Assembly (NCBI GenBank): GCA_963723985.1
Contig: CAVRTC010000003.1
Coordinates: 55,914-119,913, forward strand
Reading direction: 5' to 3'
Source: an uncultured Actinomycetes bacterium
Lineage (GTDB): Bacteria; Actinomycetota; Acidimicrobiia; IMCC26256; BP-133
DNA: 64,000 bases
Within the stretch, counting starts at the first letter, position 1; each line of letters opens with the position of its first letter. Both the position numbers and the translations under genes were made by a program. The notes beneath the pieces were generated by a model. That model was given only the letters and a program-made list of their open reading frames with translations. It ran no database searches and was not told where the DNA came from. This document shows positions 4,802 through 44,462 of this stretch, in pieces.

Positions 4802-6790
4802 TTACCGGGCTGTCGACGCCACCGCCGAGCGCAACCCGGACGCTGGGCTGAATGGCCCCGCAACTGCTTCTTTCGGCGCCACGGTACCGATGGGCTCCAG
4901 GTCGTAATCCTTGAGGTTCACCTCGCGGGTCATCTTCCAGTAGTCGATCAGGCGCCACGGTGAGTTGGTGACGACCCGGCCGCGGGCATTGCGGTACCAC
5001 GTGTCCATGGCCGGATGGGTCCAGACCATCTTCGAGTGGGCTTCGTCGACCCGGCGGTTGTACTCCTCGCACACGTCCTGGCGGACTTCGATCGACCGGA
5101 TGCCGGACTCGATCATGGTGATGAGCATGCTGACGACGTAGCGCACCTGGCACTCGGCGTGGAAGATGATCGTTCCGCCATGACCCAGATTCGTATTCGG
5201 GCCATAGAGCAGGAGAAGGTTCGGAAAGCCGGGAACGGTCATTCCGAGGTATGCCCGAGGATCGTCGTCGCCCCATTCATCCCGCAGCGACCGGCCGTCG
5301 CGACCACGGACGTCGACGCCGGCCAGCATGCGGACGGCGTCGAACCCGGTGGCGTAGATAATCACGTCGATCGCATGGTGCTCACCATCGGCCGTGCGCA
5401 ATCCGTCGGCCTCGATGCGTTCGATCCGCCCGGTGACAACCCGCACGTTTGGGCGCCTGATCGTCCTGTACCAGCCGTTGTCCATCAGTATTCGCTTGCC
5501 GTATGGCGGGTAGTCAGGAACGGCAATCGGCCGCAGGTCGATCCGGTCTCCCAGTTCGCGCTCGATGTGGCGGATCAGGTATCGCCGGTGGCCTTCGTTG
5601 ACCGCGTTGATGGAGAGTCGGCCCGGCCAGTTCGGATCGATCTGGAGCGCCGGATGGATCTTGTCGTTGAACCGCCATACCAGTTGCGCCCTGTAGTAGG
5701 CGGCGAAGTAGGGCACTTCGTTGAAGAGCAGGCGCGTTTCGTCGCTGACGTGCTTCACATAGTTCGGGTTGGGCGCCGCCCACTGCGGCGAGCGCTGGAA
5801 GATCGTGAGGGACGCGACGTCCGGGGCGATGGACGGCACGACCTGCATGGCCGAGGCGCCGGTTCCGACCACCGCCACGCGCTTCCCGACCAGGTCGATG
5901 TCGTCCGGCCAGCGCGCAGTGTGGAAGGCCGGCCCGGCAAACGTTTCGGCGCCTTCGATGGACGGCTCGGCTGGGCGGTTCAACTGTCCAACAGCGCTGA
6001 TGACCGCGTTGGCGTCGTGCGGTTCTTGGTGGCCGTCGGGCCATTGGACCGTTACGGTCCAGCGACTGCTCTCGTCATCGAAGGTCGCCGCCGTCACCTC
6101 GGCCGAGAAACGGATGTCGTTCACCACGTCGTACTCGATGGCGCACCGCACGAGATACTCGTGGATCTCGGGCTGGCGGGCGTAGTGGCTCGACCAGGCG
6201 TGATTCGGCGAGAAGGAGAACGAGTACATGTGGCTGGGGGTGTCGACCCGGCACCCGGGATAACGGTTCTCGAACCAGGTACCCCCCAGCGAGGGATTCT
6301 TGTCGAATACGGTGAAGGCGATGCCCGCCTGCTTGAGCTTGATTGCGGCGCAGATTCCCGACAGACCGGCACCGATGATGATCACTTTGAAGTCGGAGAT
6401 GCTCACGTCACCGGCCGACGACCAGGTCGCCTCCCGCGGAACGACGCCCATCTCCTCGAGCATCATCGTGGCGTACTCGGGTGCCACCGGCTCGCTCAGG
6501 CAGACGCTCAGCATCCTGATCAAGTAGTCGGGCGACGGTGGCGCGGGATCCGGGAGCCGTCCGTCCCGCCAGTCACGGATCACGTCGAAGGCATGCTCGC
6601 GAATGGTGGACTGGACAGACGGGGACAAGCCTCCCGATTCATTGTCCTCGAGACCGCGGCCGCGGCCCGGGGTGAACGGCGGCTCCAGCCAACGGGCGTC
6701 GCCCGTGTAGTGCGCCAACACCATGAGTAACGTCGGGATGTGGGCGTCTTCCAACGCTGCCCGGAGCTGGTCATCGTCGCGGATAGTCAC
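4802..6790 (-). CDS. FAD-dependent Baeyer-Villiger-type monooxygenase (flavin-containing monooxygenase family)
   Basis: IIIGAGLSGICAA..GGTWFENRYPGCRVDTPSHMYSFSF..FAGPAFHTARW..VAVVGTGASAMQ. GTG start at 6790 is preceded by GGAGA. The ORF extension to 6910 overlaps a decayed upstream gene. Confidence 0.85.
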   Translation of the reverse strand: MTIRDDDQLRAALEDAHIPTLLMVLAHYTGDARWLEPPFTPGRGRGLEDNESGGLSPSVQSTIREHAFDVIRDWRDGRLPDPAPPSPDYLIRMLSVCLSEPVAPEYATMMLEEMGVVPREATWSSAGDVSISDFKVIIIGAGLSGICAAIKLKQAGIAFTVFDKNPSLGGTWFENRYPGCRVDTPSHMYSFSFSPNHAWSSHYARQPEIHEYLVRCAIEYDVVNDIRFSAEVTAATFDDESSRWTVTVQWPDGHQEPHDANAVISAVGQLNRPAEPSIEGAETFAGPAFHTARWPDDIDLVGKRVAVVGTGASAMQVVPSIAPDVASLTIFQRSPQWAAPNPNYVKHVSDETRLLFNEVPYFAAYYRAQLVWRFNDKIHPALQIDPNWPGRLSINAVNEGHRRYLIRHIERELGDRIDLRPIAVPDYPPYGKRILMDNGWYRTIRRPNVRVVTGRIERIEADGLRTADGEHHAIDVIIYATGFDAVRMLAGVDVRGRDGRSLRDEWGDDDPRAYLGMTVPGFPNLLLLYGPNTNLGHGGTIIFHAECQVRYVVSMLITMIESGIRSIEVRQDVCEEYNRRVDEAHSKMVWTHPAMDTWYRNARGRVVTNSPWRLIDYWKMTREVNLKDYDLEPIGTVAPKEAVAGPFSPASGLRSAVASTAR

Positions 6791-7440
6791 AATGTCTCCG
6801 TGATCATCAGTTCGGCACCCGCGTAGGGAGCGACCACGTCGTCCTCGAGTTCGGCGGGCTCGCTTGCGCGCATACCCCATCGAAACGTTCGGCGGCTCCG
6901 GAGCACCCACGAACCGCAGACCGGCCCATCACCAGCACGTCGGGGAGCCCGAGGTTGAGCCCGGCGATCGCGTAGATGAGTTCCTTTGCCCGCTGGCGCC
7001 AATCCGGGCCGCCGTCAGCAATGCCAGTCCGAGGATGGCTGCACCGTTCACGGCTGTTGGCAGCCGGAGAGCGATCGGCGCCGGCGCCGGGCGCGAGTCG
7101 TGCAGCTGAATGCGCACCGCACAGTCCACTTGTATTCGGTGCCGGCGGGCGCGGCGAGCTCGGATGAAGCGTCGCCAGCGACCGCCCCGCCCTCCGTCGC
7201 CATCCACAGTTCCAACGCGTCAAGGTTGCGGCCACTCGTCCCGCAGTTCGGCCGAGAGCCAGCGTGAAGGCGATCGGGACGAGGAACACGGCGATGAGGC
7301 CTCCCGAGATCAAGTAGGAATCTTGCCGCCAGGGTTCCTGGCTCGCCCCTGGGGGGGCAAACCACCGCTAGGGGCCAAAACGGCGCCGGCCGCGGCAAAG
7401 GACCGCCGCCGACCGATTCCGCTTGGGTGCGGGCCCCCAT
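6787..7440 (-). pseudogene. Decayed paralog of the 4-TM membrane protein at 39011..39757 (multiple frameshifts)
   Basis: Family motifs are spread over three frames: SYLISGGLIAVFLVPIAFTLA (7299-7316 region), then SAELRDEW in the next frame (7232-7255), then NLDALELW. AILGLALLTAA/DGGPDWRQRAKELIYAIAGLNLGLPDVLV parallels P1 LAILVFGWNHIATDGTAGEAYEGLAVAAAGVLVAGLV. Confidence 0.5.
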
Positions 7441-7565
7441 TCAGACCATCGCCACTTTCTTCGTCCCGGGATTCGATGGCCCGGTCACCGAGCCTTATAA
7501 TATGATCGTCCAGGTAGTCAAATCAAGTAAACTCCCCCGACACGGTCCAGCTCGGCAGTGCATAA

Positions 7566-7940
7566 GTGTCGGGACAGACAACGTTCACCGGTAAAAATTG
7601 GGGGGACTCGGTGCTCCGGACGGCGAAGCGGGTCGTGAAGAAGAGCTCCAAGCTGGCAGGGCGGGCCGTTTCGGAGGTGAGTCTCGCCTTGACCGACGTC
7701 CCGGGAGGCGACACCATCCCCCTCCGCCGACTCGGGTTCGGTATTTCCATGGTCATGGACCCGCGCGGCTCGACGCTGCTCGATGCCCTCGGCGACGACC
7801 TCGACGAGCGGGCCCACACACTCGACCGCTTCCTCAACCGCTGCAGCGACGATGACCTGACGGAGCTGCTGACCGCGTTCCAGGAAGCCGCTGCCCGCCG
7901 TGCCGCCCGGGGCGGCACGAACGAGGATCAGTCGACTTAA
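7566..7940 (+). CDS. Hypothetical protein (124 aa) in a lower-GC segment
   Basis: Protein-like composition with a helical C-terminal half (DLDERAHTLDRFLNRCSDDDLTELLTAFQEAA). A perfect TATAAT lies at 7496-7501 upstream. No family recognised. Confidence 0.4.
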   Translation: MSGQTTFTGKNWGDSVLRTAKRVVKKSSKLAGRAVSEVSLALTDVPGGDTIPLRRLGFGISMVMDPRGSTLLDALGDDLDERAHTLDRFLNRCSDDDLTELLTAFQEAAARRAARGGTNEDQST

Positions 7941-8217
7941 GGCGTGGCGATCCCGGCGAACTCGGCGGACTCGCCACGGAGGGTCGCCCGATGCAGGGTG
8001 GACTTCCGGCAGTCCTGTACCCGCGGACACAAGATCCGGGGGGTTACAGGGTTCAAGTCGAGCATCACTACTGTCCATCAGTGTTGCTGCTGTTGCAACG
8101 CTTTGCGGTCCCAAGGACGACCGCTCAGAGGGATCCTCGACAACGTAATGCGCCGACCCAAATCCGCGACTCGTGGTGGAAGGTGCAGCAACACAGCAAT
8201 CAGCCCCGGAACAGGCC

Positions 8218-8257
8218 GAACACCGACGAACACTGACGAACACCGACGAACACAGTG
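8218..8257. repeat. 10-bp tandem repeat, ~4 copies (GAACACCGAC / GAACACTGAC / GAACACCGAC / GAACACAGTG)
   Basis: Read directly from the sequence, with exact 10-nt periodicity (about one helical turn). Confidence 0.8.
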
Positions 8258-8874
8258 AGCCGAAAACCCATATGCCGCAAAGAATTCGCGCTGATCCGAA
8301 CGGCTGTCGAAAGGCTCAGCGAACTCTAAATCCGCGGGTTCAGGGTTCGTGTGCCTGCGGCCGGGGCTGGATCGCCTGGCCATCAGCCGGGCAGATCGGC
8401 GATCTGCCGGCGAGCATCGGCGACCGCCAGGTAGCCCAGCCCGACCGCCGGTGCCCCGAGGACCGCGAGCATTGTCAGCGCGGCCGGCCGCGACCGCCCA
8501 CTACGGAAAGCGAACCACAGGGAGATCAGGTCGACGGTGTCACGGCCATCCCGAGCCGCAAGGCGACCGGCGCTGCACTCGAGCTCCCGCAGACGCCCGC
8601 CGACATCGCCGCCACGAAGGTCTCGCGTGTTCCCCAGATCCGCAGGACGTACGCGTGATCGACGTCGTCCTCCGGGCGCAGGCCCATGACCCGGACGATC
8701 CCACCGGGCGCGGCGATGGCGTCGATTCCGAACGCGGCACGGGCGGCGTTCAGCACCCTCCCCGCCTCTGATCGGTGGCGGAGGCGTTTCACCTTCGACA
8801 CCCCGAGTCTCATGAGCGAACTGGGCGCGACAGACGTTCGCCACTATGGAGCAACCGCAGCTTCTAGAAGCCAA

Positions 8875-9478
8875 TCAATCGGGGAACTGCTTGTCAGCGC
8901 AGTTCAGCTTGAACCCGTCTACCGAGACCCAGGTTCCATCTTTGATGACGGTGGTGAACCAGCAGGAGTGCTTCTTCGCTGGTTGGCCCTCGACAAACGT
9001 CAATGGCGGCGTGAGACCGCCGAGCGTGTCCCCGTTGATCGTCCAGAGGCCCCGAAGGATAGCTTGGTGGTGGGGGGTTCGACGATGTGGGCGCCAGCCC
9101 TCTCGAGAAGTTTCCCTGAGGCCCACCCCGCAGCGTTTGCACCTGAGGGCTTGACGCCGGTGACGGTTCGGATGGCCTGCTGGAACTCGTCCGTGGCTGG
9201 AGTGCCGGACTGGAATGGAGGGAAGACACCATGACCGACAATCATGTTGTTCAGGTTCGGGTCTTTCGCCAACTCCTCGTGGGCGGTAACCGAAGGTGCG
9301 CTGAAGATCGGACGGTAACCTTGTCTGGCCCGACACGGTGGCCGACGCCGACATCTGGCCGAACACGTAACGGATCACCATCGTCGGCCCACCCGGCGTC
9401 GCCTGCTCCTGGCGCACGACCAGGCCCGGGCTCACGACCCTTCTCCGAGAACCCGACCGTCTGGCCGGCGATCGTCAT
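8875..9478 (-). pseudogene. Fragment (C-terminal ~200 aa) of a LIV-type ABC substrate-binding protein, several frameshifts
   Basis: GTPATDEFQQAIRTVTGVKPSGANAAGWASGKLLERA and ILRGLWTINGDTLGGLTPPLTFVEGQPAKKHSCWFTTVIKDGTW parallel the intact SBP (37451..39001) IIEGLYGLRGETLGGLVPPTTYKRGVPHKDANHCAIPIVIGDGKF. The pieces lie in three frames. Confidence 0.7.
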
Positions 9479-10181
9479 CCGTTGATGACGAACGTCGCTT
9501 CCCGGGTCGGGTCGGCCCCCGGACCCCGGGTGACCTTCGCCTTGGCGTCGACCTGCCCGATCCGCAGCACCCCGCCGATGTTGATGATGTCGGCCATGCC
9601 CGTGGCCTCAGCCGTCACCATCCCTGACGCCGCGTCTCGGCTCGTCACGGCGTTCGCCACCGTGGACCCGATCGCCGAACCGCTCGACCCGCCTCCGGTC
9701 TTGGTCGTCCCTTGCGACGACGATTCACCACTGGTGGCCACCAGTTCGTATCCCGGTTGCACCACCTTCGCCTCCGGCGTCGTCGGATGGCTCGACGACA
9801 CATAGAACGGGTACGTCGGCGGCGACGGCCGACCCGTCAGGCCCGCCAGCAACCCCCGCCCGGAGATGGCCAGATCCCCCGGATAGGGCAGGGAGGCGAA
9901 GGCCCGGGAGTTCCCCAGACCGTCGATCACCGACTGCGACACCGGCCCCCCTACCGTCGATCAACGTCTCCACGACAGCGAATCCCGGCGCCGCAACCGA
10001 AACCCGAATCCCGTCGGCCGAGGCCACCGCCTCATACGACACCGGCGCAGCCGGTGCCTCGGCCCCGCCGGCAACGCCGATGGCCAGCGCCAGCACAGCT
10101 GTGCCAAGTACGCCGGAGGCGCCGGAGCCGAAGCGCCCGCTTCCCGATGGACCGTGGCCTGTGCAATCGGTTCACGGTCAT
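9475..10181 (-). pseudogene. Truncated, frameshifted paralog of the secreted protein at 42694..44106
   Basis: AFASLPYPGDLAISGRGLLAGLTGRPSPPTYPFYVSSS matches AFAALPYPGENGVGGPALVLGLLGQSPPASYPFYVRAD. The signal-peptide-like GVLGTAVLALAIGVAGGAEA is in another frame. One shift sits in a G-run near 9950 and a second near 10125. The reading frame stops at ~240 aa, versus 470 aa in the paralog. Confidence 0.7.
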
Positions 10182-10744
10182 CCCCCCTTCGATTTGACAC
10201 TCCGACCCGGCGGAGCCGCGCCGCCGGACCCAGGCTGACTCCTGCAGATCGGTGTGGCGGGCCATGTCGCTCGAGCTCACGGCGCCCGCTGTGCCAAGGG
10301 GGCGACGGACGGGTCGTTATCGGCTACTCGGCTCCCGCCCAGCCGGCTGAGCCGCTTATCGAAAGCCAACGAGGAGTTTGAGAACAAGAAGAGCGAACGC
10401 CCTGCGACCTGTGACAATTTGTTGGCCAGTGAATTGAGCGAAAGGCAGTGTTGCAGACCCAGCCAGTGCCAGCGAGACTTGCCTTTCCGACGCCATTACT
10501 ACCCCACGGCCTCTGAGAATCTGCCTCAATTTGCCTGAGAGAGCCCCTGAGTTCATCGCAATCGCCTCCGATCCGTCGGAGGTTGAGTTTAACGGGCGCG
10601 TCGGATAAATCAAGCGCTTGGTTTCCATGACCGACCGCGGGAAGTGCGCGCAGCCCCGGAGGGAAGCCGGTCTTGCCGGCGCCGCACATCGACTGACTGC
10701 TCTGTTCATGTCGAAGCCCGATGAACCTACCGGACCAAAGCAGG

Positions 10745-10766
10745 GAGCCGGTCCGAAGACCGGCTC
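10745..10766 (-). terminator. Stable hairpin 19 nt downstream of tRNA-Pro (9-bp stem, UUCG loop on the minus strand)
   Basis: GAGCCGGTC-TTCG-GACCGGCTC on the minus strand, followed by CCTGCTTTGG. There is no strong U-tract. Confidence 0.5.
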
Positions 10767-10784
10767 TGACCTGCACTTTCTCCG

Positions 10785-10859
10785 TCGGGCTGGGGAGATT
10801 TGAACTCCCGACCTCTTGACCCCCAGTCAAGCGCGCTAACCAAGCTGCGCCACAGCCCG
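10785..10859 (-). tRNA. tRNA-Pro(GGG): tRNA-Pro, anticodon GGG
   Basis: Manual cloverleaf, 75 nt with no encoded CCA: acceptor CGGGCTG/CAGCCCG, D stem GCGC/GCGC, anticodon stem CTTGA/TCAAG with loop CTGGGGG, T stem GGGAG/CTCCC with loop TTCAAAT, discriminator A. Confidence 0.95.
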
Positions 10860-10860
10860 T
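10818..10860. repeat. Left copy of a perfect 43-bp direct repeat (tRNA-Pro nt 1-42 plus 1 nt upstream)
   Basis: GACCCCCAGTCAAGCGCGCTAACCAAGCTGCGCCACAGCCCGT is identical to 15406..15448. Confidence 0.95.
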
Positions 10861-10938
10861 TACTTCTGCAACACTCAAAAGCTTACTGGCTAATACACAA
10901 GACTACTCGAACAACATCTGTGTCCGAAGGCCGTCACG

Positions 10939-10963
10939 CAGACGACCATTGAGACGACCACAG
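10939..10963. repeat. 25-nt motif CAGACGACCATTGAGACGACCACAG (contains GACGACCA twice); second copy at 15291
   Basis: 24/25 identical to 15291..15315. Both copies lie just inside the 43-bp repeats, in the same orientation. GGGTGGCTCAGAC also recurs, at 11041-11053 and 15283-15295. Confidence 0.8.
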
Positions 10964-11240
10964 CATACTGAGCGAGCGCGCAGGACGGCCGCGGCCGACA
11001 CCTCGCTACACCGTCGAACCTTCGAGCTCGCCTACGCCGCGGGTGGCTCAGACACCGTTGGTTCCGCTCACCAATAGGTCAAGACTTCGTTGTGCACAAA
11101 GGGATTGAGGGTCCAACCGATCGGACGCGGGCTACCGAGTGGGGGTCGGCGCTTACCCTCTTGTCCGGGCCGCCCGCAGCCGACGCCCGGCGTACCGGGG
11201 CCGAACGCCGGCGCGGCGCGCTTGATGGGAAGTCAAGCGG

Positions 11241-12071
11241 TCAGCCGAAGAGCGGCGCCTGTTCTGTGGAGGCACGTCGGGGCTGGTCCGCCGGAGGCCG
11301 GCTGATCTCGGAAAGCGGCGCCGAAGGCGCTTGGAGCGGAGGTTGTCTGTCCAGGCTGGCTGCCCAGGCCCGGATCTTCCCGTTGGGGTCGCCCGCGGCG
11401 CGGCTGGTGACGGCTTGTGCTCCGTCCCGTACAGCGAGGAGTTGGAGGGCCCGGAGCCGGGCGGGGGCTCCCGGCCAGGAGCAGCCGAGGTCGATCAGTG
11501 CCTCCCGGACCTCGTCCGGGTAGCGATCGGCGGCGTCGAGGAGGCCGGCAAAAACAGCGTCACCGGCCCGGGCGTCCAGTTCTCTGGCCCGGTTGAGAAT
11601 GTCGTGGCTGCGGGACGGGTGGCGACCGACGACCGCTGCTGCCCAGCGCCGCAGGGGCGGGGCGATCAACCGCTCGAGGTGAAGGGGGGTGCCAGGCGGG
11701 AGGGCCGGGCCGTCGATGGTGCCGGCGCGATCCCTGATCCAGGCCTCGGGGACGGGCCAGCGGTACTGGTCCGACCAGAGGAAGCCGTTGGCGAACCCTT
11801 CGAGTTCGGCTTCGGTGAGCAGGCCGCTCTGCTCGACGGCGGCGACGAGTGGAGCGGTGACCCGCCGCCAGCGATGGTCGGTGCAGAGCAGGCCGGCCGT
11901 CTGGATCGCCCCGTCCGGACGGCCGCGGTGGAGCCTTCGCCAGACGGTAATAGCGTCGGTCGGATTGGGGGACGCCCGGAGGTGGGGGTGGAAGACCAGC
12001 CATCGCCACAACTCGTCCGGGGTGGCCGCCGTGAGGATGGCCGCCACGTCCTCCGCCACCGACGGGATCAT
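11241..12071 (-). CDS. Hypothetical protein (276 aa), helical-repeat-like
   Basis: Only the C-terminal 276 codons of ORF 11241..13838 look protein-like (MIPSVAEDVAAILTAATPDELWRWLVFHPHL..DPNGKIRAWAASL). It is divergent from the gene at 12213. Confidence 0.55.
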   Translation of the reverse strand: MIPSVAEDVAAILTAATPDELWRWLVFHPHLRASPNPTDAITVWRRLHRGRPDGAIQTAGLLCTDHRWRRVTAPLVAAVEQSGLLTEAELEGFANGFLWSDQYRWPVPEAWIRDRAGTIDGPALPPGTPLHLERLIAPPLRRWAAAVVGRHPSRSHDILNRARELDARAGDAVFAGLLDAADRYPDEVREALIDLGCSWPGAPARLRALQLLAVRDGAQAVTSRAAGDPNGKIRAWAASLDRQPPLQAPSAPLSEISRPPADQPRRASTEQAPLFG

Positions 12072-33180: not shown

Positions 33181-33941
33181 GTGGTCATGGTGGACGGTCT
33201 CGAGGTCAGCGGCGTGGTGGTCAGATTCGGAGATTCGGGCGCGCTCGACGGCGTATCCTTCGCCGTGCCACGGGGCGGATCACCGGACTGGTCGGGCCTG
33301 TGGGGGCCGGGAAGACAACGGCGTTCAACGTCGCCTGTGGCCTTCAGCTGGCCGACGCAGGCAGCGTCAGGCTGCGGGGAGCCGACATCAGCCACGAGAC
33401 CCCCGCCCGTCGCAGCCAGCTGGGGCTGGGCTGGCTCCATCACCGGACGGAGATCTTTCCGTCGGTCTCCGTCCGGGACAACGTCGCCCTGGCCGTCGAG
33501 TCGGCCTCCGCCGGCGCAGACGGCGCCCCCGCCGAGTGCGACTCGTTCACCGACGAGCTGCTCGAGGCGGTCGGGCTGGCCGCGACGGCCACTCGCCTGG
33601 CCGCCCAACTTCCGCTCCACCTCCGCCGCCGGCTGGAACTCGCCCGCGTGCTGGCCCGGCGCCCGAAGGTCCTCCTGCTCGACGACGCCACGGCCGGCCT
33701 CGACGGCCGGCAACGGGCGGCCTTCGGGCAGATCCTCGCCGACCTGAGGGCCGAACGCGGCACTGGCATTCTCCTGTTCGAACGGGATCCGGGCCTCACG
33801 TTCGAGCTGTGCGACTGGATCCACGCCATCGTCGCCGGCCGGCCGCTGCTCGACGGGCCCGCCGCCCAGGTCCGGTATTCCGATGCTCTGCATCGTGCCT
33901 ACCTGTCCGAGATCCCGACCGCCATTGGGAAAGGACCGTGA
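33181..33941 (+). CDS. ABC-type ATPase homolog with degenerate catalytic motifs (LivG/LivF-like); frameshift in G-run 33272-33275
   Basis: Walker A is intact (GPVGAGKTT). The signature is LPLHLRRRLELARVLA (not LSGGQ), Walker B is LLLDDATAG (no catalytic Glu) and the H-loop position reads ERD. The N-terminal 30 aa are in the adjacent frame. Confidence 0.75.
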
Positions 33942-36306: not shown

Positions 36307-37454
36307 GCCGGCAGATCCCGCGACCCGGGCCGCTCCACGGCATTCGCGTCGTCGACTTCACCACCAACATGGCGGGGCCGCTGGCCACCATGGTCCTCGG
36401 CGACCAGGGTGCCGACGTCGTCAAGGTCGAACCGCCCGCCGGTGACGTCGTCCGGGGCATCGGCACGATGTCGGCCGGCATGTCGGCCTACTTCGCCAAC
36501 CTGAACCGCTCGAAGCGGTCGATCGCGCTGGACCTGACCGATGCGGGCTCCCGGCCGGTCGTCGACGCGCTGCTCGATACGGCCGACATCATGGTGCACA
36601 GCTACCGGCCGGATGTGGCGCGGGCACTCGGCCTCGACGAGCGGCGGGTCCGCGACGGCCGGCCCCGGCTCGTCTACGGCGAGGTGGCCGGCTACGGCTC
36701 GGAGGGCCCCTCTGCCGGACGGCCCGCCTACGACCACGTCATCCAGGCGATGTCGGGCTTCGCCGCCCTGCAGACTCCACCAGGCAGCGGGGAGCCGACC
36801 CTCGTCCGACAGGGCGTCGTCGACAAGCTGACAGCCTACGCCACGGCCCAGGCGCTGGCCGCCGCCCTCGTCGAACGAACCCGGACGGGAGAGGGGCGGG
36901 CCGTCACGATCCGGATGCTCGACGTCGCCATCGCCGTGCTGTGGCCGGACGGGATGATGGACAAGACGATCCTCGCTCCGGAGCAGCCGCGACCGGCCAT
37001 CGACGGCAGCTTCCGGGCTACGCCGACCAAGGACGGGCACATCGTGCTGACCGTGGTCACCGGGCGGCAGCTCCAGCAGCTCCTCGTGGCCACCGGCGTC
37101 GAGGAGACCGGCGCCGGGCCGGAGACCGGGCCCCGAGGCCCGGGCGGGGAGAAGCTCCGGGAGGCGGTGGCCCGGCTGGCGACGATGACGACGGACGAAG
37201 CCGTGGACCGGCTGGCGGCCCACGAGGTTCCCGTCTCGGCCGTGGTGCGCCTGGAGGACCTCCATCGGCACCCCCAGGTCGTGGCCAATCGGAGCATCGA
37301 CGAATTTCCGCATCCGGTGCTAGGCCTGGTCCGCCAGGCGAATCCGGCCGTGCGGTTCGACGGCGAGCACGCCGGCGGTCTCCGGCCGGCGCCTCGCCTG
37401 GGAGAACACGACGAGGAGATCCGGCGCGAACTTCTTCGGGGGGTACGGCAATGA
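36303..37454 (+). CDS. CoA-transferase family III (CaiB/BaiF-like)
   Basis: LHGIRVVDFTTNMAGPLATMVLGDQGADVVKVEPP..YFANLNRSKRSIALDL. GTGA junction. Confidence 0.9.
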   Translation: MSRQIPRPGPLHGIRVVDFTTNMAGPLATMVLGDQGADVVKVEPPAGDVVRGIGTMSAGMSAYFANLNRSKRSIALDLTDAGSRPVVDALLDTADIMVHSYRPDVARALGLDERRVRDGRPRLVYGEVAGYGSEGPSAGRPAYDHVIQAMSGFAALQTPPGSGEPTLVRQGVVDKLTAYATAQALAAALVERTRTGEGRAVTIRMLDVAIAVLWPDGMMDKTILAPEQPRPAIDGSFRATPTKDGHIVLTVVTGRQLQQLLVATGVEETGAGPETGPRGPGGEKLREAVARLATMTTDEAVDRLAAHEVPVSAVVRLEDLHRHPQVVANRSIDEFPHPVLGLVRQANPAVRFDGEHAGGLRPAPRLGEHDEEIRRELLRGVRQ

Positions 37455-39001
37455 GGAAACACGGACCCGTGACGTCAGCCCTGCTGATCCCGCTGGGTGC
37501 CACCCTGCTGGCGACCGCCAGCTGCGGTCTGCGGGTCGACCAGCTTCCGGCGGCTGAGGGTTCCGAGGCGGTCACCACCGAAGTGGCGGCGGCCGGCGAC
37601 ACCTCCGCGTCCGCCGCGGAAACCACGGCCCTGGTGCCCGAGTCGGGGATCCCGGACGCGGCCAGCAGCGCCACCGCCGCACAGGGCCCGAGTCGCGCCG
37701 GTGGATCGGCCCCGACCCCGGCCGGTCAGCCGGCGCCGACCGGCGGCGCGGGAAGCAGGGCCAGCGAAGTCGGTCAACGTCGGGGCGACCCTCGAAGCCA
37801 ACCCGTCCCCGGGCAGGCGGCGGCGCCCCGCGCCCAGAAGGCGTCGACCCAAGGTTCCGGTACGCCCGCCGCCCCCGCGCCCGGCGCGGCGGCCGTGAAG
37901 GCCGAGATCCGCCTGGGTTCCATCGGGATCGGCAGCGGCCCCCTGGGGTTTGTGACCCAACCGATCCGTGACGCCTCGAAGGCCTGGGTGGCGTCGGTGA
38001 ACGGTCGGGGCGGGGTGAACGGCCATCCGGTCCGGCTGCTCTTCGGCGACGACGGGGCCGATCCGGCCCGGGCACTGGCCTTGGCCAAGCGGTTCGTCGA
38101 AGCCGACAAGGTGCAGGCCATGTTCGGGCTGCACATGCCGACCACTGAGCAGGCGATCGTCCCCTACCTGATCGAGAAGAGGATTCCCACGGTCGGTACG
38201 TGCAACTGCAACCCGGCCAGCGACGAGAACCCGCTGGCGTTCAACGTCGGTCCCGGGCCGACGGCGGGCTTCGCCTGGGAGCACCTTCTCTCGGTGCTGG
38301 GACAGACGGGCGCCAAGAAGATCGCCGTCCTGTACTGCCGGGAGGCCACGACCTGCGACGTCGTATTCAAGAACATGCGGCAGTTCACGGACAAGCTCGG
38401 GGTGGAGATTGTGCAGGGCTCCCAGGTGTCGCTGGCCCAACCGGACTACACCGCCGAGGTGCTCGCCGCCCGCAATGCCGGCGCCGAGGGGATCATCGGC
38501 GTCGTCGAGAACCAGTCGGCCGTCCGGATCCTCCGGGCGGCCCGGCGCCAAGGATGGGGCGTCCCGGTCGGCTCCCAGCACTCGGTCATGGACGATCGCA
38601 TGCTGGCGCTCCCCGACGCCAAGGGCCTGCTGGGCGCCGTGATCACCGCCGACTACCAGACCCATCCCGGCTTCGAGGAATACCGCCAGGCGATGGCCCG
38701 CCTGCCGGGCTCCATCAAGGGCAACACCGGGTCGATCCAGTGGGCCGCCGGCCTGATGCTCGAAAAGGCCAGCACCCAGTTCGGCGACACGGTGACGCCG
38801 GACGACATCATCGAAGGCCTCTACGGTCTGCGGGGCGAGACGCTCGGCGGCCTCGTCCCCCCGACGACGTACAAGCGGGGCGTCCCCCACAAGGACGCCA
38901 ACCACTGCGCCATCCCGATCGTGATCGGCGACGGGAAATTCGACTTCCCGAAGGGTCCCGACTTCCAGTGTGCGCCGGGGTGGCAGCCGGCGCAGCCGTA
39001 G
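37451..39001 (+). CDS. LIV-type ABC transporter substrate-binding lipoprotein with a long disordered N-terminal linker
   Basis: Lipobox LLATASCG, a ~120-aa Ala/Pro/Gly/Ser linker, then a periplasmic-binding fold (IRLGSIGIGSGPLG..VNGHPVRLLFGDDGADP..). ATGA junction. Confidence 0.85.
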   Translation: MRKHGPVTSALLIPLGATLLATASCGLRVDQLPAAEGSEAVTTEVAAAGDTSASAAETTALVPESGIPDAASSATAAQGPSRAGGSAPTPAGQPAPTGGAGSRASEVGQRRGDPRSQPVPGQAAAPRAQKASTQGSGTPAAPAPGAAAVKAEIRLGSIGIGSGPLGFVTQPIRDASKAWVASVNGRGGVNGHPVRLLFGDDGADPARALALAKRFVEADKVQAMFGLHMPTTEQAIVPYLIEKRIPTVGTCNCNPASDENPLAFNVGPGPTAGFAWEHLLSVLGQTGAKKIAVLYCREATTCDVVFKNMRQFTDKLGVEIVQGSQVSLAQPDYTAEVLAARNAGAEGIIGVVENQSAVRILRAARRQGWGVPVGSQHSVMDDRMLALPDAKGLLGAVITADYQTHPGFEEYRQAMARLPGSIKGNTGSIQWAAGLMLEKASTQFGDTVTPDDIIEGLYGLRGETLGGLVPPTTYKRGVPHKDANHCAIPIVIGDGKFDFPKGPDFQCAPGWQPAQP

Positions 39002-39010
39002 GCGGCGGCC

Positions 39011-39757
39011 GTGCACCGTCGAGCGGTCCTCGGGTTGCTGCGGGCGCAGGGCGACCGGGTCCTGGCGTTCGGCTGCCTCGGCGGCGGCGGCCTCCTGGTC
39101 TTCCTCGCCTACTGGAGGCTCAGCGCCAAGGCCGACCCGGCGCAAGGCATGGCTTACCTGGCGTCCGGCGGCATCGGCGGCCTGTTCCTCATCGGGCTCG
39201 GTGCCACGCTCGTCGTCTCCGCCGACCTCCGGGACAGCTGGCGGAAGCTGCGCCTCCTCGAACACAGCGCGACCGGCGACACGGGCGCACCGTTGGCTCG
39301 CTCAGCCGGCCATCTCGGAGGGCGAGAGTTCCCGGCCAGCGGGTTCACCCGGGGAGCCGCCGGGTTCGGCCTGGGGGCCGGCCTGGCGATCCTGGTGTTC
39401 GGCTGGAACCACATCGCCACCGACGGGACGGCCGGCGAAGCCTACGAAGGCCTGGCGGTGGCCGCCGCCGGGGTGCTGGTTGCCGGCCTCGTGGCCGGAT
39501 GCTTCATCGTCGTCATGCGGAAGGCCGTCGAGGACCGGGCGGCAGCGCTGCTGGCTCCCTGGCTCCCCTCTACCGCCGTACCGGTCGCGGACCATCGCCT
39601 CGCCCCCGGGGGCCGCGTGCTCGTCGCCGAAGGCCTCCGCCGCTACCACTCCGAAGGGTGCCTGGCCGTCGCCGGCGTCGCCACCGAATCCGTCGAGGTC
39701 ACGGCGGTCCCGGCCGGTCTGGTGCCCTGCCTCCTCTGCCAGGAGGTTTCGGTGTGA
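39011..39757 (+). CDS. P1: 4-TM membrane protein with the YLASGGIGGL..SADLRDSW motif and a C-terminal H-x3-C-x22-C-x2-C cluster
   Basis: TM segments VLAFGCLGGGGLLVFLAYW, YLASGGIGGLFLIGLGATLVV, FGLGAGLAILVFGW and LAVAAAGVLVAGLVAGCFIVV. Tail RRYHSEGC..PCLLCQ. Its stop overlaps the permease ATG. Confidence 0.7.
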   Translation: MHRRAVLGLLRAQGDRVLAFGCLGGGGLLVFLAYWRLSAKADPAQGMAYLASGGIGGLFLIGLGATLVVSADLRDSWRKLRLLEHSATGDTGAPLARSAGHLGGREFPASGFTRGAAGFGLGAGLAILVFGWNHIATDGTAGEAYEGLAVAAAGVLVAGLVAGCFIVVMRKAVEDRAAALLAPWLPSTAVPVADHRLAPGGRVLVAEGLRRYHSEGCLAVAGVATESVEVTAVPAGLVPCLLCQEVSV

Positions 39758-41676
39758 TGGACGACTATTTCCCGTTCATCGTGGTAGGGCTCACGACCGG
39801 ATCGGTCTTCGCCGTCGCCGCCATGGGTCTCACCGTCACCTACACCACCTCCGGCGTGTTCAACTTCGCCCATGGCGCGGTGGCCATGGTCGCCACCTAC
39901 GTGTACTACTCGCTGCACGTCGACCTCGGGCTCCCGACCGCGGCGGCGATGGCGGTGGCCGTGCTCGGCGTGGGTCCGGTGGTGGGTCTCTGTGTCGACC
40001 GGCTGCTGTTCCGCCGTCTGCACGGCGCACCGGCGGCCACGTACGTGGTGGTGTCGCTCGGACTGCTGATCGCCTTACAGGGCTTGATCATCATCATTTA
40101 CGGAGCCGACCTCCGGCCGCTCGAACCGATCTTCCCCCGCGAAACTTTCGGGCTGGCCGGCGTGCGGGTGGGCTACGACCAGGCGATCGTCGTCGCCATC
40201 TCCGTGGTCGTCGCCCTGGCCCTGGCGGTCTTCTTCAAACGGAGTTCGCTCGGGGTCAAGACGAGAGCGGTGGTCGACGACCCGAATCTCACCGAGCTGG
40301 TCGGGGTCAACTCGTCGCTGGTCACCACGTTCAGCTGGATGCTCGGCTGCTCGTTCGCCGCCCTGTCCGGGCTCCTCCTCGCCCCGCTGGTCGGCTCGCT
40401 CGACGCCGTGTTCCTCACGCTCCTCGTGATCCAGTCGTTCGGCGCAGCCGTGGTCGGCCGGCTCGTCGACCTTCGCTGGACGTACCTCGGCGGCCTCGGC
40501 ATCGGTGTCGCCGCCGAGGTGTCGAAGAAGATCTTCGCCGGCGAGCCGTCGCTGTCGGGGTTGCCGACCAGCCTGCCGTTCATCGTCCTGTTGGCGGTGC
40601 TCGTCCTCAGCCGCCGGGGCCGGTTCACGGAGGTGGTGAAGATCTCCCAACGGGTGACCGCCCGCCAGAGCCTCGGGACCCGGCCGTTTCCCTGGGCGAC
40701 CATCGGTCTCGGAACCGTGATCGCCGTCGGCCTGGGGTTTACCCTCGACGGCGCGCCGTTGCTCACGGCGGCGGCGACCGTGATCTTCGTCCTGCTCTTC
40801 TCCAGCCTCAGCCTGTTGGTGGGGTTGTCACGGCAGGTGTCGCTGAGCCACGCCGTCTTCTTCGTGATCGGCGCCACCACGCTGTCGGGACTGCAGGATG
40901 CCGGGGTTCCCTACCTGCTGGCGCTGCTGCTGTCGGGAGCCGTTCTGGTTCCGATCGGCGCCTGCGTGGCCATCCCCGCCCTCCGGCTCTCGGGGCTGTT
41001 CCTGGCCCTCGGCACCTTCGCCTTCGGGATCCTCGGCCAGCAGCTCCTATACACGACCGTGCTGGCCGGCGCCAAGGCGACACGCGTGATCACCCGACCC
41101 GAGTTCCTGGGCGTCAGCCTGAAGGGCGACCGGGCCTTCTACCTCTTCGTCGTGGCCGTCGTCCTGACCGGGGTGGTCGCCGTCGAGATCGTCCGGGTGA
41201 CGCGTCTCGGGCGGATGCTGCGCGCCCTGGCCGACTCGCCCGCCGCGGTTCAGATCCTGGGCGTCAATCCGATGGCGTCGCAGGTCCTCGTGTTCTGCCT
41301 GAGCGCCTTCCTGGCCGGGATCGCCGGTGCGCTGATCGGCACGCTCACCGCCGCCATCAACGCCGAAGCCTACGGCTTCCTGGAATCGCTGATCTGGGTG
41401 ACGGTGCTGATCGCCGCCGGGCGAGAGACGCTCCTCGGGACGATCGTCGCCGCGGTGCTGCTCTTCGCGCTCCCCAGCGTCTTCACTTCGCCGACGGTGC
41501 GGGAATGGCAGCCGGTGGCCTTCGGGCTGGGGGCGATCGTGCTGGCTCAGGCCCCGAACGGGCTCGTCGGGCTGCTGCGGCCCCGGTGGCCGCAGTTCGC
41601 CCGGCTGGCCGCCGCCAGCCGCTGGCGACTGGAGGACGGACCGCTGCGCCACCGGCTGGCCGAGGGGGCACGGTGA
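39757..41676 (+). CDS. Fused LivH-LivM-type branched-chain amino acid ABC permease (639 aa)
   Basis: The N-terminal half is LivH-like (GLTVTYTTSGVFNFAHGAVAMV) and the C-terminal half LivM-like (LLVGLSRQVSLSHAVFFVIGA..MLRALADSPAAVQILGVN). Confidence 0.9.
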   Translation: MDDYFPFIVVGLTTGSVFAVAAMGLTVTYTTSGVFNFAHGAVAMVATYVYYSLHVDLGLPTAAAMAVAVLGVGPVVGLCVDRLLFRRLHGAPAATYVVVSLGLLIALQGLIIIIYGADLRPLEPIFPRETFGLAGVRVGYDQAIVVAISVVVALALAVFFKRSSLGVKTRAVVDDPNLTELVGVNSSLVTTFSWMLGCSFAALSGLLLAPLVGSLDAVFLTLLVIQSFGAAVVGRLVDLRWTYLGGLGIGVAAEVSKKIFAGEPSLSGLPTSLPFIVLLAVLVLSRRGRFTEVVKISQRVTARQSLGTRPFPWATIGLGTVIAVGLGFTLDGAPLLTAAATVIFVLLFSSLSLLVGLSRQVSLSHAVFFVIGATTLSGLQDAGVPYLLALLLSGAVLVPIGACVAIPALRLSGLFLALGTFAFGILGQQLLYTTVLAGAKATRVITRPEFLGVSLKGDRAFYLFVVAVVLTGVVAVEIVRVTRLGRMLRALADSPAAVQILGVNPMASQVLVFCLSAFLAGIAGALIGTLTAAINAEAYGFLESLIWVTVLIAAGRETLLGTIVAAVLLFALPSVFTSPTVREWQPVAFGLGAIVLAQAPNGLVGLLRPRWPQFARLAAASRWRLEDGPLRHRLAEGAR

Positions 41677-42377
41677 GCCTGCTCCTCGACGTGCGGGGCC
41701 TCCGAGCCGGTTACGGACGGACCGAGGTGCTGCACGGTGCCGAGCTCCGGGTCCCGACCGGCGCGGCCGTCGCCGTCCTCGGCGCCAACGGCGCGGGAAA
41801 GACGACTTTGCTCAACACCATCGCCGGCGTGCTCCGGGCCTGGGACGGCCGGATCACCTTCCGGGGCCAACCGATCCAGAACTGGGCGGCGCACGCCCGC
41901 ACCCGGGCCGGTGTCTGCCTCGTGCCGGAGGGCCGGGGCATCTTCCGGGGTCTCACGGTCCGGGAGAACCTGAGGCTCCAGGCCGGGGAGGGTGCGTTCG
42001 CCGAAGCACTCGAGGCGGCGGTCGTGGCGTTCCCGATGCTGAAGGAGCGGCTCGACCAGCCGGCGGGCACCCTGTCGGGCGGTCAGCAGCAGATGCTGTC
42101 GGTGGCGAGGGCCTTGATCACCGACGCGCCGCTGGTGCTGGCCGACGAGTTGTCGGTGGGTCTGGCCCCGGTGGTCGTCGACGAGATCTTCGCCGCCGTC
42201 GAGCTCCTGAAGCGGCAGGGTCGATCGCTGGTCCTCGTGGAGCAGTACGTCGAACGGGCGGTGGCCGTGGCCGACTACGTCTACATCCTCCACAAGGGGG
42301 TCACGGTCTTCGCCGGTGAACCGGCGCAGTGCCGGTCGGGCGATGTCTTCGAGCGTTACCTCGGCGGAGCGGCCTGA
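41673..42377 (+). CDS. ABC transporter ATP-binding protein, LivF-like (canonical motifs)
   Basis: GANGAGKTT, LSGGQQQMLSVARAL, LVLADELSVGLAP, LVEQY. GTGA junction. Confidence 0.92.
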   Translation: MSLLLDVRGLRAGYGRTEVLHGAELRVPTGAAVAVLGANGAGKTTLLNTIAGVLRAWDGRITFRGQPIQNWAAHARTRAGVCLVPEGRGIFRGLTVRENLRLQAGEGAFAEALEAAVVAFPMLKERLDQPAGTLSGGQQQMLSVARALITDAPLVLADELSVGLAPVVVDEIFAAVELLKRQGRSLVLVEQYVERAVAVADYVYILHKGVTVFAGEPAQCRSGDVFERYLGGAA

Positions 42378-42691
42378 TGCCGCGAAACAAAGGGGGTGCC
42401 ATCGTGCGGTGGCCAAGGCTTCGGGCGGCGTGGGACCGGGCGCTGGGCGTCGGCCTGATCGCCGGCGGAGGAGTGTGCGTGATGGGCGGCTACCTCGGGG
42501 TGAGCGGGACCCGCCGCCTCTCCGAACAGGCCGCCTATCTCGCCTCCGGGGGCCTGGGAGGGCTGTTCCTCCTGGGGTGTGGAGCGACGTTGCTGGTGTC
42601 GGCCGACCTGTCGGACCTGTGGCGGCAACTCGAGATAACGGAGGAAGCGGTCGACCGGCGTGAGATCGAGCTGGTTCGAGGGGGGCGATAG
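42377..42691 (+). CDS. P2: small 2-TM membrane protein, paralog of the P1 N-terminus
   Basis: ALGVGLIAGGGVCVMGGYLGV then AAYLASGGLGGLFLLGCGATLLVSADLSDLWRQLEITEE. TGATG junction with the ATPase gene. Confidence 0.7.
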   Translation: MPRNKGGAIVRWPRLRAAWDRALGVGLIAGGGVCVMGGYLGVSGTRRLSEQAAYLASGGLGGLFLLGCGATLLVSADLSDLWRQLEITEEAVDRREIELVRGGR

Positions 42692-42693
42692 GG

Positions 42694-44106
42694 ATGGGCA
42701 GACAGACGCGGAGCCGGCTGGGCAGCCTCGTGGCCGGGGCGGCGGTGATGATCCTCGGCCTGACCGTGCTGCCCGACTCCGGGGCGGCGGACACCCGACC
42801 GGGTCAGGGCCCGACGACGGCTCTTCTGGGGACGGCGACCGCGCAGGGAATGCGGATCACCTACACGGTGCCCGACTTCCTCGTTGTCACCGAGGTCATG
42901 GACGGGGGTGGGCCGGTTGCCCAGGCGGTGCTCGAAACGGGCGGCCAGTCCACGGCGTTCGCCGCCCTGCCCTATCCCGGGGAGAACGGAGTCGGTGGGC
43001 CGGCTCTCGTGCTCGGGCTCCTCGGCCAGTCGCCGCCGGCGAGCTACCCGTTCTACGTCCGGGCCGACTCTACGGTGAATCCCAGCACCGAACTGAAGGA
43101 TCCGAGCGGCTCGTACACCTTGCGGGCCGCGGCCGAAGTCCGGAAATCCGTCGGGACTGCCGACGTGGCCTTCGGGCCGCCCGACCACCCGGCGTCGTCG
43201 GCCACGGCGCACACCGAGGTACTCAGCGCCGCCGACGGCACGATGACCGTGACGGCGGAATCGCGGTTCTCGGGCCTGGCGCTGGGGGAGGGGCTGTTAC
43301 GGATCGCCTCCGTCGAAAGCCGCTCCGTCTCGGTCTACGGGCCGGCCGACGCCGAACCCCGGACCACAACCGCGCTGCTCATCGACGGTGCCCGGATCGG
43401 CGATCAAGCCGTCACGATCGGCCCGGACGGCGTCCACGCCGCGGGAGTGCCCTCACCGGTGCCCACCGGTGGCCCCGGTCCGCTCAACCAGGCGCTGGCC
43501 CAGGCCGGTTTGACCGTGCGGACCGTGTCCGCCGGTCCCGTCGAGGGTGGTGCGACGGCCGATGCCCTCGAGATCAGCCGCGATCAGGGACCCCCCGTTC
43601 CCGGGATGCCCCGGAGCACGCTGAGCCTGCGCATCGGCGGGGCCACCACGGCGGTGAGCGCCGGCAGCACGTCGGCCCTCGTGGGTACCCCTGAGCTTGC
43701 GGCGGACACGCCGGAAGCTCAGGGGAACGCCGACCGTTCCCCGGCCCCGTCCGGCGCCGACCCCGTCGTGGCGGCCCCGCCCCCCAACACCGCCAAGGAC
43801 AACGAGCCCGCAACGACCGGAGCCCGGCCCGCTGCCCCGTCGCCGCGGTCGGCGGCTGGTCCGACCAACGACTTCGGAACCGAGTTCTCCGACAGCTCGA
43901 CGGGGCTCGGTCTGACACCTCCCCCAACGGCCCAGGTCTCCGCATCGCCATCCCCGGCACCATCCCTGCCGCGACCATCGCGCCCGGCGAGTTCCTCGCG
44001 AGCCCTCGCACCGGAGGCCAGGGCCCTGTACGTCCTGCTCGGCCTGGCGGCGGTGGGGACGATCGGGCTCTCGCTCGTCTCCCGCACCCGGACGGCCCCG
44101 TCGTGA
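42694..44106 (+). CDS. Secreted protein with a signal peptide, ~330-aa domain, Pro/Ala-rich stalk and C-terminal TM anchor
   Basis: Signal LVAGAAVMILGLTVLPDSGAA, stalk PAPSGADPVVAAPPPNTAKDNEP.., and tail APEARALYVLLGLAAVGTIGLSLVSRTRTAPS. A paralog fragment lies at 9475..10181. Confidence 0.75.
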   Translation: MGRQTRSRLGSLVAGAAVMILGLTVLPDSGAADTRPGQGPTTALLGTATAQGMRITYTVPDFLVVTEVMDGGGPVAQAVLETGGQSTAFAALPYPGENGVGGPALVLGLLGQSPPASYPFYVRADSTVNPSTELKDPSGSYTLRAAAEVRKSVGTADVAFGPPDHPASSATAHTEVLSAADGTMTVTAESRFSGLALGEGLLRIASVESRSVSVYGPADAEPRTTTALLIDGARIGDQAVTIGPDGVHAAGVPSPVPTGGPGPLNQALAQAGLTVRTVSAGPVEGGATADALEISRDQGPPVPGMPRSTLSLRIGGATTAVSAGSTSALVGTPELAADTPEAQGNADRSPAPSGADPVVAAPPPNTAKDNEPATTGARPAAPSPRSAAGPTNDFGTEFSDSSTGLGLTPPPTAQVSASPSPAPSLPRPSRPASSSRALAPEARALYVLLGLAAVGTIGLSLVSRTRTAPS

Positions 44107-44462
44107 TGGACGACCACTCCCCGTCGGGGGCGGAACGGTGCCGCACCGCCGCCGTGGTCCTGATCGTCACCGGGGCGTTGTTCATCGTCGTCGGCTTCGT
44201 GCGCGTCACCGGCTCGCTCACGTTGGCCGAGATGATCGCCTACATCGTGTCCGGCGGCATCGGCGGGCTCGCCCTGGTCGGGTCCGGTGTCGTGCTCCGG
44301 TCCTCGGCCCAGTTCCGTGACCAGTGGGACGCGATCGATCGGGCCCGCGCCGACCTCCGGACCCGCCACCAAGGAAAGGAAACCGGCGACGCCTCATGGA
44401 CAATCCCTTCTTCCCGCACCTGCTCGTCGAAGACCGTGATGGCGTCAAGGTCGTCGTCCTGA
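44103..44462 (+). CDS. P3: small 2-TM membrane protein, third paralog
   Basis: AAVVLIVTGALFIVVGFVRV then IAYIVSGGIGGLALVGSGVVLRSSAQFRDQWDAIDRARADL. GTGA junction. The 3' end overlaps the next gene by 67 nt, so the true stop is uncertain. Confidence 0.6.
   Translation: MMDDHSPSGAERCRTAAVVLIVTGALFIVVGFVRVTGSLTLAEMIAYIVSGGIGGLALVGSGVVLRSSAQFRDQWDAIDRARADLRTRHQGKETGDASWTIPSSRTCSSKTVMASRSSS

Follow-up and report, generated by a model that had tools for sequence, protein, structure and literature searches.

The 64,000-nucleotide (nt) stretch of contig CAVRTC010000003.1 analyzed here (GenBank assembly GCA_963723985.1, uncultured Acidimicrobiia bacterium), which is called the window throughout, raises the question of what became of the genes in an interval of approximately 4 kb that is bounded by a Baeyer-Villiger-type monooxygenase (BVMO) gene and a tRNA-Pro(GGG) gene. 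Three gene types lie broken in this interval, coding for a secreted protein (Sec), a small membrane protein (P), and a LIV-type substrate-binding protein (SBP). The same three types are found in an intact transporter module of the window (37451-44462), and a preliminary description had regarded the interval as a second copy of that module, duplicated and now eroding. The interval is a case of ordinary bacterial gene decay and contains no novel type of element. Its history is probably that of an old paralogous operon in which an internal deletion welded the front of one Sec gene, Sec1, to the tail of an SBP gene, leaving non-functional relics. The window has a GC content of 70%, as in Acidimicrobiia, and the nearest database relatives of its genes are metagenome-assembled genomes of this class.

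The first transporter relic is the Sec1 pseudogene (Table 1). Remnant alignments were made with a frameshift-tolerant protein-versus-DNA Smith-Waterman program written for this work, which aligned residues 1-327 of the intact ortholog P0001 (386 aa) to 10181..9328 of the minus strand with a score of 974 and four frame changes. A search of a database of 5.8 billion proteins with the reconstructed translation returned P0001 at 73% identity and 100% coverage (E=2e-96). The remnant is 73-82% identical to the orthologs of other Acidimicrobiia genomes, and the nucleotide identity is 75-84% in DNA alignments with three related loci (L001, L002, L004) and in blastn alignments with eight Sec1 orthologs from Illumina metagenomes (L090-L097), ending exactly at 9328/9329. 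In the alignments to P0001 and to a set of 35 Sec sequences (A1), the conserved beta domain of about 280 residues is aligned with its PYP…YPFY motifs, and the invariant residues P98, Y99, P100, G113, G116, Y123, P124, and Y126 are kept. The secreted-protein remnant is thus real; it is not the N-terminal half with two frameshifts, as had been thought, but covers 85% of the gene and has four lesions that break the frame. What is missing is the C-terminal linker and the transmembrane (TM) anchor, which is present in some Sec1 orthologs. The AlphaFold2 model of P0001 has a confident core (pLDDT >90 for 205 residues) formed by an all-beta domain at about residues 49-325, followed by a disordered linker. 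Foldseek comparison of this model with the PDB gave no meaningful match, only low-TM porin-like ones.

The four lesions are located by alignment with the orthologous genes. The TGA at 9475-9477 and the ATG at 9478, earlier interpreted as a boundary between two genes, result from a 1-nt deletion within Sec1; the orthologs read …INGMTIAGQ… across this site without interruption. The largest lesion is a deletion of 116 nt, since the two blocks that abut at 9438 in the window are separated by 115-117 nt in 11 of 11 orthologous loci (L001, L002/L003, L004, L090-L097). Seven conserved columns of the Sec family fall in the deleted block. This block aside, one substitution only (P108R, at an invariant P) is found at the 53 family-conserved columns. 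The GC content at third codon positions (GC3) of the stump is 0.86, and its codon usage is host-like, similar to that of live genes. The scarcity of amino acid changes, together with this GC3 value, therefore points to a recent inactivation of Sec1.

Immediately downstream of Sec1 lies the end of a Peripla_BP_6 gene. Residues 106-249 of the database protein P0060 align to 9329..8899 on the minus strand with 59% identity and a score of 420, compared to 35±5 for dinucleotide shuffles. The remnant matches proteins annotated with PF13458 (E=5e-44), and the best of them are branched-chain amino acid transport SBPs, 48-59% identical over 95% of the fragment. By itself, the fragment gives no direct Pfam match because just the extreme C-terminal part of the protein survives. 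Indeed, only the equivalent of P0060 residues 106-249 is present, without the complete two-lobe binding domain and the export signal that function requires, and the N-terminal two-thirds of the protein was found nowhere in the window. One frameshift within 9064-9077, beside a C6 run at 9072-9077, divides the stump between two frames. The preliminary description had recognized an SBP C-terminus at 8875-9478 in three frames; the SBP identity holds, but the positions 9330-9478 belong to Sec1, to which 9328-9400 is assigned by both tblastn and DNA alignments. Sec1 homology extends to 9328, after codon 327, and the first position with SBP homology is 9329, on the same strand and with zero spacer. 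The 186-codon open reading frame (ORF) at 8875-9435 therefore combines the 3′ part of Sec1 with the 3′ end of the SBP gene in one chimeric frame.

The third relic belongs to the P family, small proteins with two TM segments and the motif SGG…LWLSADLRDEWRKLD. Residues 43-111 of a P protein from a related locus (L002 P112) align to 7316..7122 with a score of 98, compared to 33-35±4 for shuffles (p ~1e-8 to 1e-10), and a blastn alignment with the same gene covers 45 nt at 87% identity. The reconstructed peptide matches 49 P genes in related loci with 47-59% identity and E values down to 2.5e-15. The core motif and the second TM segment are distributed over three frames (YLISGGLIAVFLVPIAFT, WLSAELRDEW, and RNLDAL), with 2-3 frameshifts and without the N-terminus; N-terminal queries for the first TM segment were not significant (p=0.11-0.42). 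Among the P-family motifs previously placed in 6787-7440, those of the core at 7316-7122 are confirmed in their three frames, whereas a P1-like second pair of TM segments at 7120-6790 is not borne out. Queries with Pz, the second small membrane protein of these modules, and with the C-terminal half of P1 (including its Cys-containing C-terminus) were not significant on that stretch (p=0.05-0.17, three Pz queries), and no Pfam domain was found in any frame of 6791-7121. The codon usage of the P remnant matches that of the host. Its identity to the P gene of the Sec1 operon is 48-55%, no closer than to other P paralogs, and the Sec1-operon P gene is 82-89% identical among L001, L004, and L087. 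Being far more degraded than Sec1, the P fragment is therefore probably an older or separate relic. The origin common to the three remnants that had been assumed is not supported by these identities, and the P fragment may derive from a separate and older event.

In three related loci (L001, L002, L004), the operon that contains Sec1 has the order Sec1-P-Pz-LivHM-LivG-LivF-Sec2-ORF116. It is fully intact in L002; L001 and L004 carry many frameshifts of their own. In the contigs of L001, L004, and L085-L088 (ENA ERZ250395xx), many genes, such as those for the permease and the ATPases of L001, are broken up among several frames. Such splitting is typical of an indel-rich long-read consensus, and short database proteins from these contigs are accordingly unreliable.

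A broader view of the association was obtained by a metagenome scan with the Sec alignment, which gave 80 loci (L090-L169) whose genes were labelled by tblastn. Sec is followed by P and then by Pz and the permease in 30 of the 41 Sec genes with enough downstream sequence. Upstream of Sec, an SBP gene is found in 11/45 cases and LivF in 11/45. The gene after LivF is Sec in 16/24 and SBP in 4/24, which makes 20/24 together. The recurring orders are SBP-Sec-P-Pz-perm-G-F, Sec-P-Pz-perm-F-SBP, and SBP-P-Pz-perm-G-F-Sec, where perm is the permease and G and F are LivG and LivF. Given this tight clustering of Sec, P, permease, ATPase, and SBP genes in the 80 loci, the earlier idea that these gene types form a functional unit is well supported. 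There is no Pfam or NCBIfam model for Sec, P, or Pz, nor do they have a relative of solved structure.

These architectures offer a simple origin for the chimera. The order Sec-P-Pz-perm-(G)-F-SBP is found in L115, L117, L125, L147, L153, and L154, and one deletion within an operon of this order would give exactly a fusion of the Sec N-terminal part with the SBP C-terminal part. The ancestral operon would have been of the Sec-P-Pz-LivHM-LivG/F(-SBP) type and anciently paralogous to the module at 37451-44462. We infer a single internal deletion extending from Sec1 codon 328 to about the last 150 codons of a downstream SBP gene on the same strand, by which the two stumps would have been welded at 9328/9329. 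The dead Sec1 stump would then have gained three small indels and the 116-nt deletion, with almost no amino acid changes. The P fragment, 2 kb away and much more eroded, would be an older or separate relic, with a DUF4267-like gene carrying one frameshift and an intact small gene between it and the stumps. Sec1 itself no longer has the neighbours of its family: the SBP stump adjoins it at 9329, and P, Pz, permease, and ATPase genes are not adjacent. No significant remnant of permease, ATPase, Sec2, or Pz was found in 6788-9330 or 10182-10783. That rearrangement had taken place, as the preliminary description held, is clear, in the form of rearrangement or deletion. The Sec1, SBP, and P remnants and the DUF4267 gene (E=1e-20) are all homologous to intact genes, and all have a disrupted or truncated frame; for the three transporter types, the values given above (E=2e-96, E=5e-44, and p ~1e-8 to 1e-10) identify them as true relics of the kinds first named. 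Judged from their sequence, the transporter remnants are non-functional pseudogenes heading for deletion, and the interval appears to encode no working transporter part.

Several observations weigh against this history. The closest Sec1 operons (L001, L002, L004, L090-L097) have no SBP gene after the ATPases or before Sec1 and contain two Sec genes; an SBP gene at the tail was seen only in more distant members of the family, whose identity to Sec1 is 32-39%. For the SBP stump, the closest sequences (50-59% identity) are orphans located among catabolic genes, outside Sec/P modules, and the GC3 of the stump (0.74) suggests an age or origin differing from that of Sec1. A single deletion does not explain why the P fragment is found on the far side of two unrelated genes. 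The junction is read from one assembly, and its exact 29-mer was sought in the metagenome contigs and was absent. Finally, several 1-nt lesions are located at short homopolymers (C6 at 9072-9077; GG at 9478 and near 8540) and could be consensus errors.

The interval does not consist solely of module debris: of its five coding features, two (the DUF4267-like gene and the small plus-strand gene) have no relationship to the module core. The stretch 8383-8874, once considered uninterpretable, has the codon-position GC of minus-strand coding sequence with a single frame switch. Searches with phmmer/HMMER against 1.8 billion representative sequences returned proteins of 123-151 aa, the best being P0172 (E=1e-20), which aligns end to end with 74/121 identical residues (61%) and one frameshift near 8540. 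P0172 scores 27.6 bits on PF14087 (cut-off 27.8) over profile positions 3-107 of 110, and the ORF of the window scores 18.8-19.3 bits against the same gathering threshold of 27.8. The gene at 8813-8383 resembles the DUF4267 proteins in aligning end to end with proteins of 125-135 aa, the best at 27.6 bits; it differs in that the scores are under the cut-off and the copy in the window is frameshifted. This nearly intact gene seems unrelated to the transporter module, to which no link was found. Two states are compatible with its one lesion, a pseudogene of very recent origin or a live gene whose consensus sequence is wrong at that site, the latter being a real but minor possibility.

The lower-GC insert of the preliminary description holds an intact and conserved gene on the plus strand at 7611-7940. 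This gene has 93 database homologs or clusters of approximately 100-125 aa with 65-85% identity, its codon-position GC is 0.70/0.49/0.85 (GC3 0.85), and it is annotated as a 109-aa gene in the source database; its sequence features indicate that it is live. No Pfam or NCBIfam family includes it. ORF116 is a distant homolog (blastp E 5e-6 and 5e-8; frameshift-aware p ~1e-6), but the true orthologs of the small gene are located elsewhere in the genomes of the relatives, with other neighbours. The spacer at 7941-8382 gave no Pfam match and no remnant of a module protein. Within it, a 10-nt tandem repeat (CGAACACCGA/CGAACACTGA) is present in three and a half copies at 8217-8253.

Among the other explanations for the interval as a whole, the one that survives best, albeit as an unlikely one, is that the fragments are the remains of a horizontally acquired island at tRNA-Pro and arrived broken, or were broken by integration and excision. 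The interval lies directly downstream of the 3′ end of the tRNA, there are lower-GC patches at 7450-7600, 8050-8350, and 10300-11050, and the GC3 of the SBP stump is atypical. In addition, neither Sec1 nor the small plus-strand gene has flanks syntenic with those of the relatives, where no tRNA was found near Sec1. However, the six frames of 6791-10783 contain no Pfam domains, including those of integrases, transposases, and other mobile elements, and a search of the window for a direct repeat of the end of the tRNA, made with its 3′ 25-mer and <=3 mismatches, found no second copy. Moreover, the codon usage of Sec1 and P is that of the host, and related Acidimicrobiia normally carry the Sec1 operon on the chromosome.

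Duplication of the intact module within this genome, followed by erosion and rearrangement of the second copy, is very improbable. It is consistent with the presence of Sec, SBP, and P gene types at both places and with the different gene order, as expected after rearrangement. The frameshift-tolerant alignment of the intact proteins that had been proposed as a check does detect the Sec relic: by tblastn against the window, the intact Sec (42694-44106) matches 9951-9478 on the minus strand (E=3.8e-13). The identity is just 34%, and that between the SBP stump and the intact SBP is 33%, to be compared with 73-82% between the Sec remnant and the orthologs of other genomes and 59% between the SBP remnant and P0060. 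The orthologous operon is also composed differently: it has a second Sec gene, P and Pz as separate genes, LivG, and ORF116, but no SBP gene, whereas the intact module has a P-Pz fusion (P1), carries Sec at the tail, and lacks ORF116. From these identities and this composition it follows that the split between the two modules long predates this genome. Sec, P, and a Peripla_BP_6 SBP are families common to both, at about 33-34% identity for Sec and SBP, and Sec1 is best regarded, on its alignments, as the decayed ortholog of a gene from an old paralogous operon, one that relatives still have intact, and not as a recent duplicate. Comparison with related genomes, where an intact second copy had been anticipated, did yield the intact Sec1 operon of L002, but synteny through the BVMO gene was uninformative, the best relatives in a scan of genome contigs being 52% identical and none having Sec, P, or SBP nearby.

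The least probable account, that the frames are intact and the lesions are assembly or consensus errors in live paralogs, can hardly be maintained. In its favour, the related contigs L001 and L004, which come from a project of this kind, are riddled with frameshifts, three 1-nt lesions are at short homopolymers, and the Sec1 sequence is otherwise well conserved. Base-calling, however, cannot produce the 116-nt deletion or the loss of the Sec1 C-terminus and of two-thirds of the SBP, and a wrong homopolymer length explains neither the inserted A near 9951 nor the 2-nt deletion near 10125. Furthermore, about nine frame-breaking lesions are concentrated in approximately 2.4 kb, whereas the window has, outside the interval, about 29 kb of unbroken ORFs of 300-1000 codons, a clustering which argues against random consensus error.

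On the left, the decayed region meets the BVMO gene, whose ORF is listed up to 6910. Homolog alignments begin near a GTG at 6790, so that the first coordinate given earlier for the remnants (6787) coincides with the BVMO start codon. The GTG (6788-6790) overlaps the TGA of a decayed upstream frame (GTGA). On the right, 600 nt of non-coding sequence (10182-10783) separate Sec1 from the tRNA-Pro gene, besides which Rfam detects no RNA. Between a 27-nt segment at 11216-11242 and the anticodon arm of tRNA-Pro (10810-10836), the complementarity is 81%; the segment is either a tRNA fragment or a chance resemblance, and ARAGORN and Rfam found no second tRNA. In the intact module, Pfam families are assigned solely to the SBP, the permease, and the ATPase. 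The single ATPase gene of this module (41673-42377) is LivF-like, and LivG-like ATPase genes are located apart from it at 8-558 and 33270-33905.

Table 1. Coordinates of the features of the decayed interval, its flanks, and the intact module in the window.
Feature	Position	Strand	Description
BVMO	4802-6790	-	Pfam FMO-like and Pyr_redox_3 matches
GC-rich stretch	6791-7121	-	Between P remnant and BVMO start; weak, non-significant collinear resemblance to Pz/P149
P-family pseudogene core	7122-7316	-	Motif YLISGG…(W)LSAELRDEW…NLDAL in three frames
Small gene	7611-7940	+	109 aa (longer 124-aa ORF from 7566); intact, strongly conserved
Non-coding spacer	7941-8382	.	GC 0.61; between the convergent small gene and DUF4267 gene
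Putative DUF4267-family gene	8383-8813	-	About 140 aa; one 1-nt deletion near 8539-8541 (GTGGAC to GTGAC)
SBP remnant	8875-9329	-	Last ~150 codons and stop of a Peripla_BP_6 (LIV-type) substrate-binding protein
Sec1 pseudogene	9328-10181	-	Residues 1-327 of a ~380-aa signal-peptide, all-beta, C-terminally anchored protein
Sec1 116-nt deletion scar	9437-9439 (at 9438)	-	About 39 codons gone and frame shifted
Sec1 1-nt deletion	9475-9480 (at 9478)	-	Orthologs AACGG(C/G)ATGACG, window AACGG-ATGACG
Sec1 1-nt insertion	9948-9953 (near 9951)	-	A before G6 run; DNA alignment with L001, L004
Sec1 2-nt deletion	10121-10126 (~10125)	-	DNA alignment with orthologous loci
tRNA-Pro(GGG)	10784-10859	-	ARAGORN and Rfam; flanks the decayed region
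Intact module	37451-44462		SBP (37451-39001), P1, fused LivHM, one ATPase, P2, Sec (42694-44106), P3

That bacterial pseudogenes are subject to deletional bias and disappear rapidly is established (Kuo & Ochman, PMC2817411, PMC2916853; Danneels et al., PMC6054270). The interval resembles the pseudogenes and operon remnants of that literature in its multiple frameshifts, internal deletions, and truncation with fusion by deletion, as well as in its enlarged non-coding spacers and in the adjacency of relics of differing ages. It differs in that the genome is a gene-dense, high-GC one of free-living type from the Acidimicrobiia and not a host-restricted reduced genome, and the decay is local (~4 kb).

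The parent operon resembles the LIV-I importers of the HAAT family (LivJ/K Peripla_BP_6, LivH/LivM BPD_transp_2, LivG/LivF) in having a fused LivHM, LivG/LivF, and often a Peripla_BP_6 SBP. Operons of the Sec1 type differ from them by the addition of Sec, P, and Pz, and the closest of these operons are without an SBP gene. To our knowledge, Sec, P, and Pz are absent from the classical liv operon of E. coli.

As such, the finding is an ordinary one, a local pseudogene cluster. For annotation, it means that the 155-codon and 186-codon ORFs of the interval should not be called genes, whereas the 109-aa gene on the plus strand should. The junction between Sec1 and the SBP gene and the 116-nt deletion, each backed by 11 orthologous loci, clearly illustrate the way in which a bacterial operon is taken apart by deletions. 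The locus also gives independent support for the association of Sec, P, and SBP with the LivHM, LivG, and LivF genes. The lead beyond this is the uncharacterised Sec/P/Pz accessory set; its association with the transporter genes is of greater interest than the relics, and the intact module and the 80 related loci are better material for studying it. It is tentatively conceivable that Sec, P, and Pz are obligatory undescribed accessory subunits of a subfamily of LIV-type ATP-binding cassette importers widespread in soil Acidimicrobiia, with the surface-anchored Sec even replacing the SBP in some operons. If this is true, the relic would show that such modules are lost as units, and the weld between Sec1 and the SBP gene would mark the two ends of the operon.

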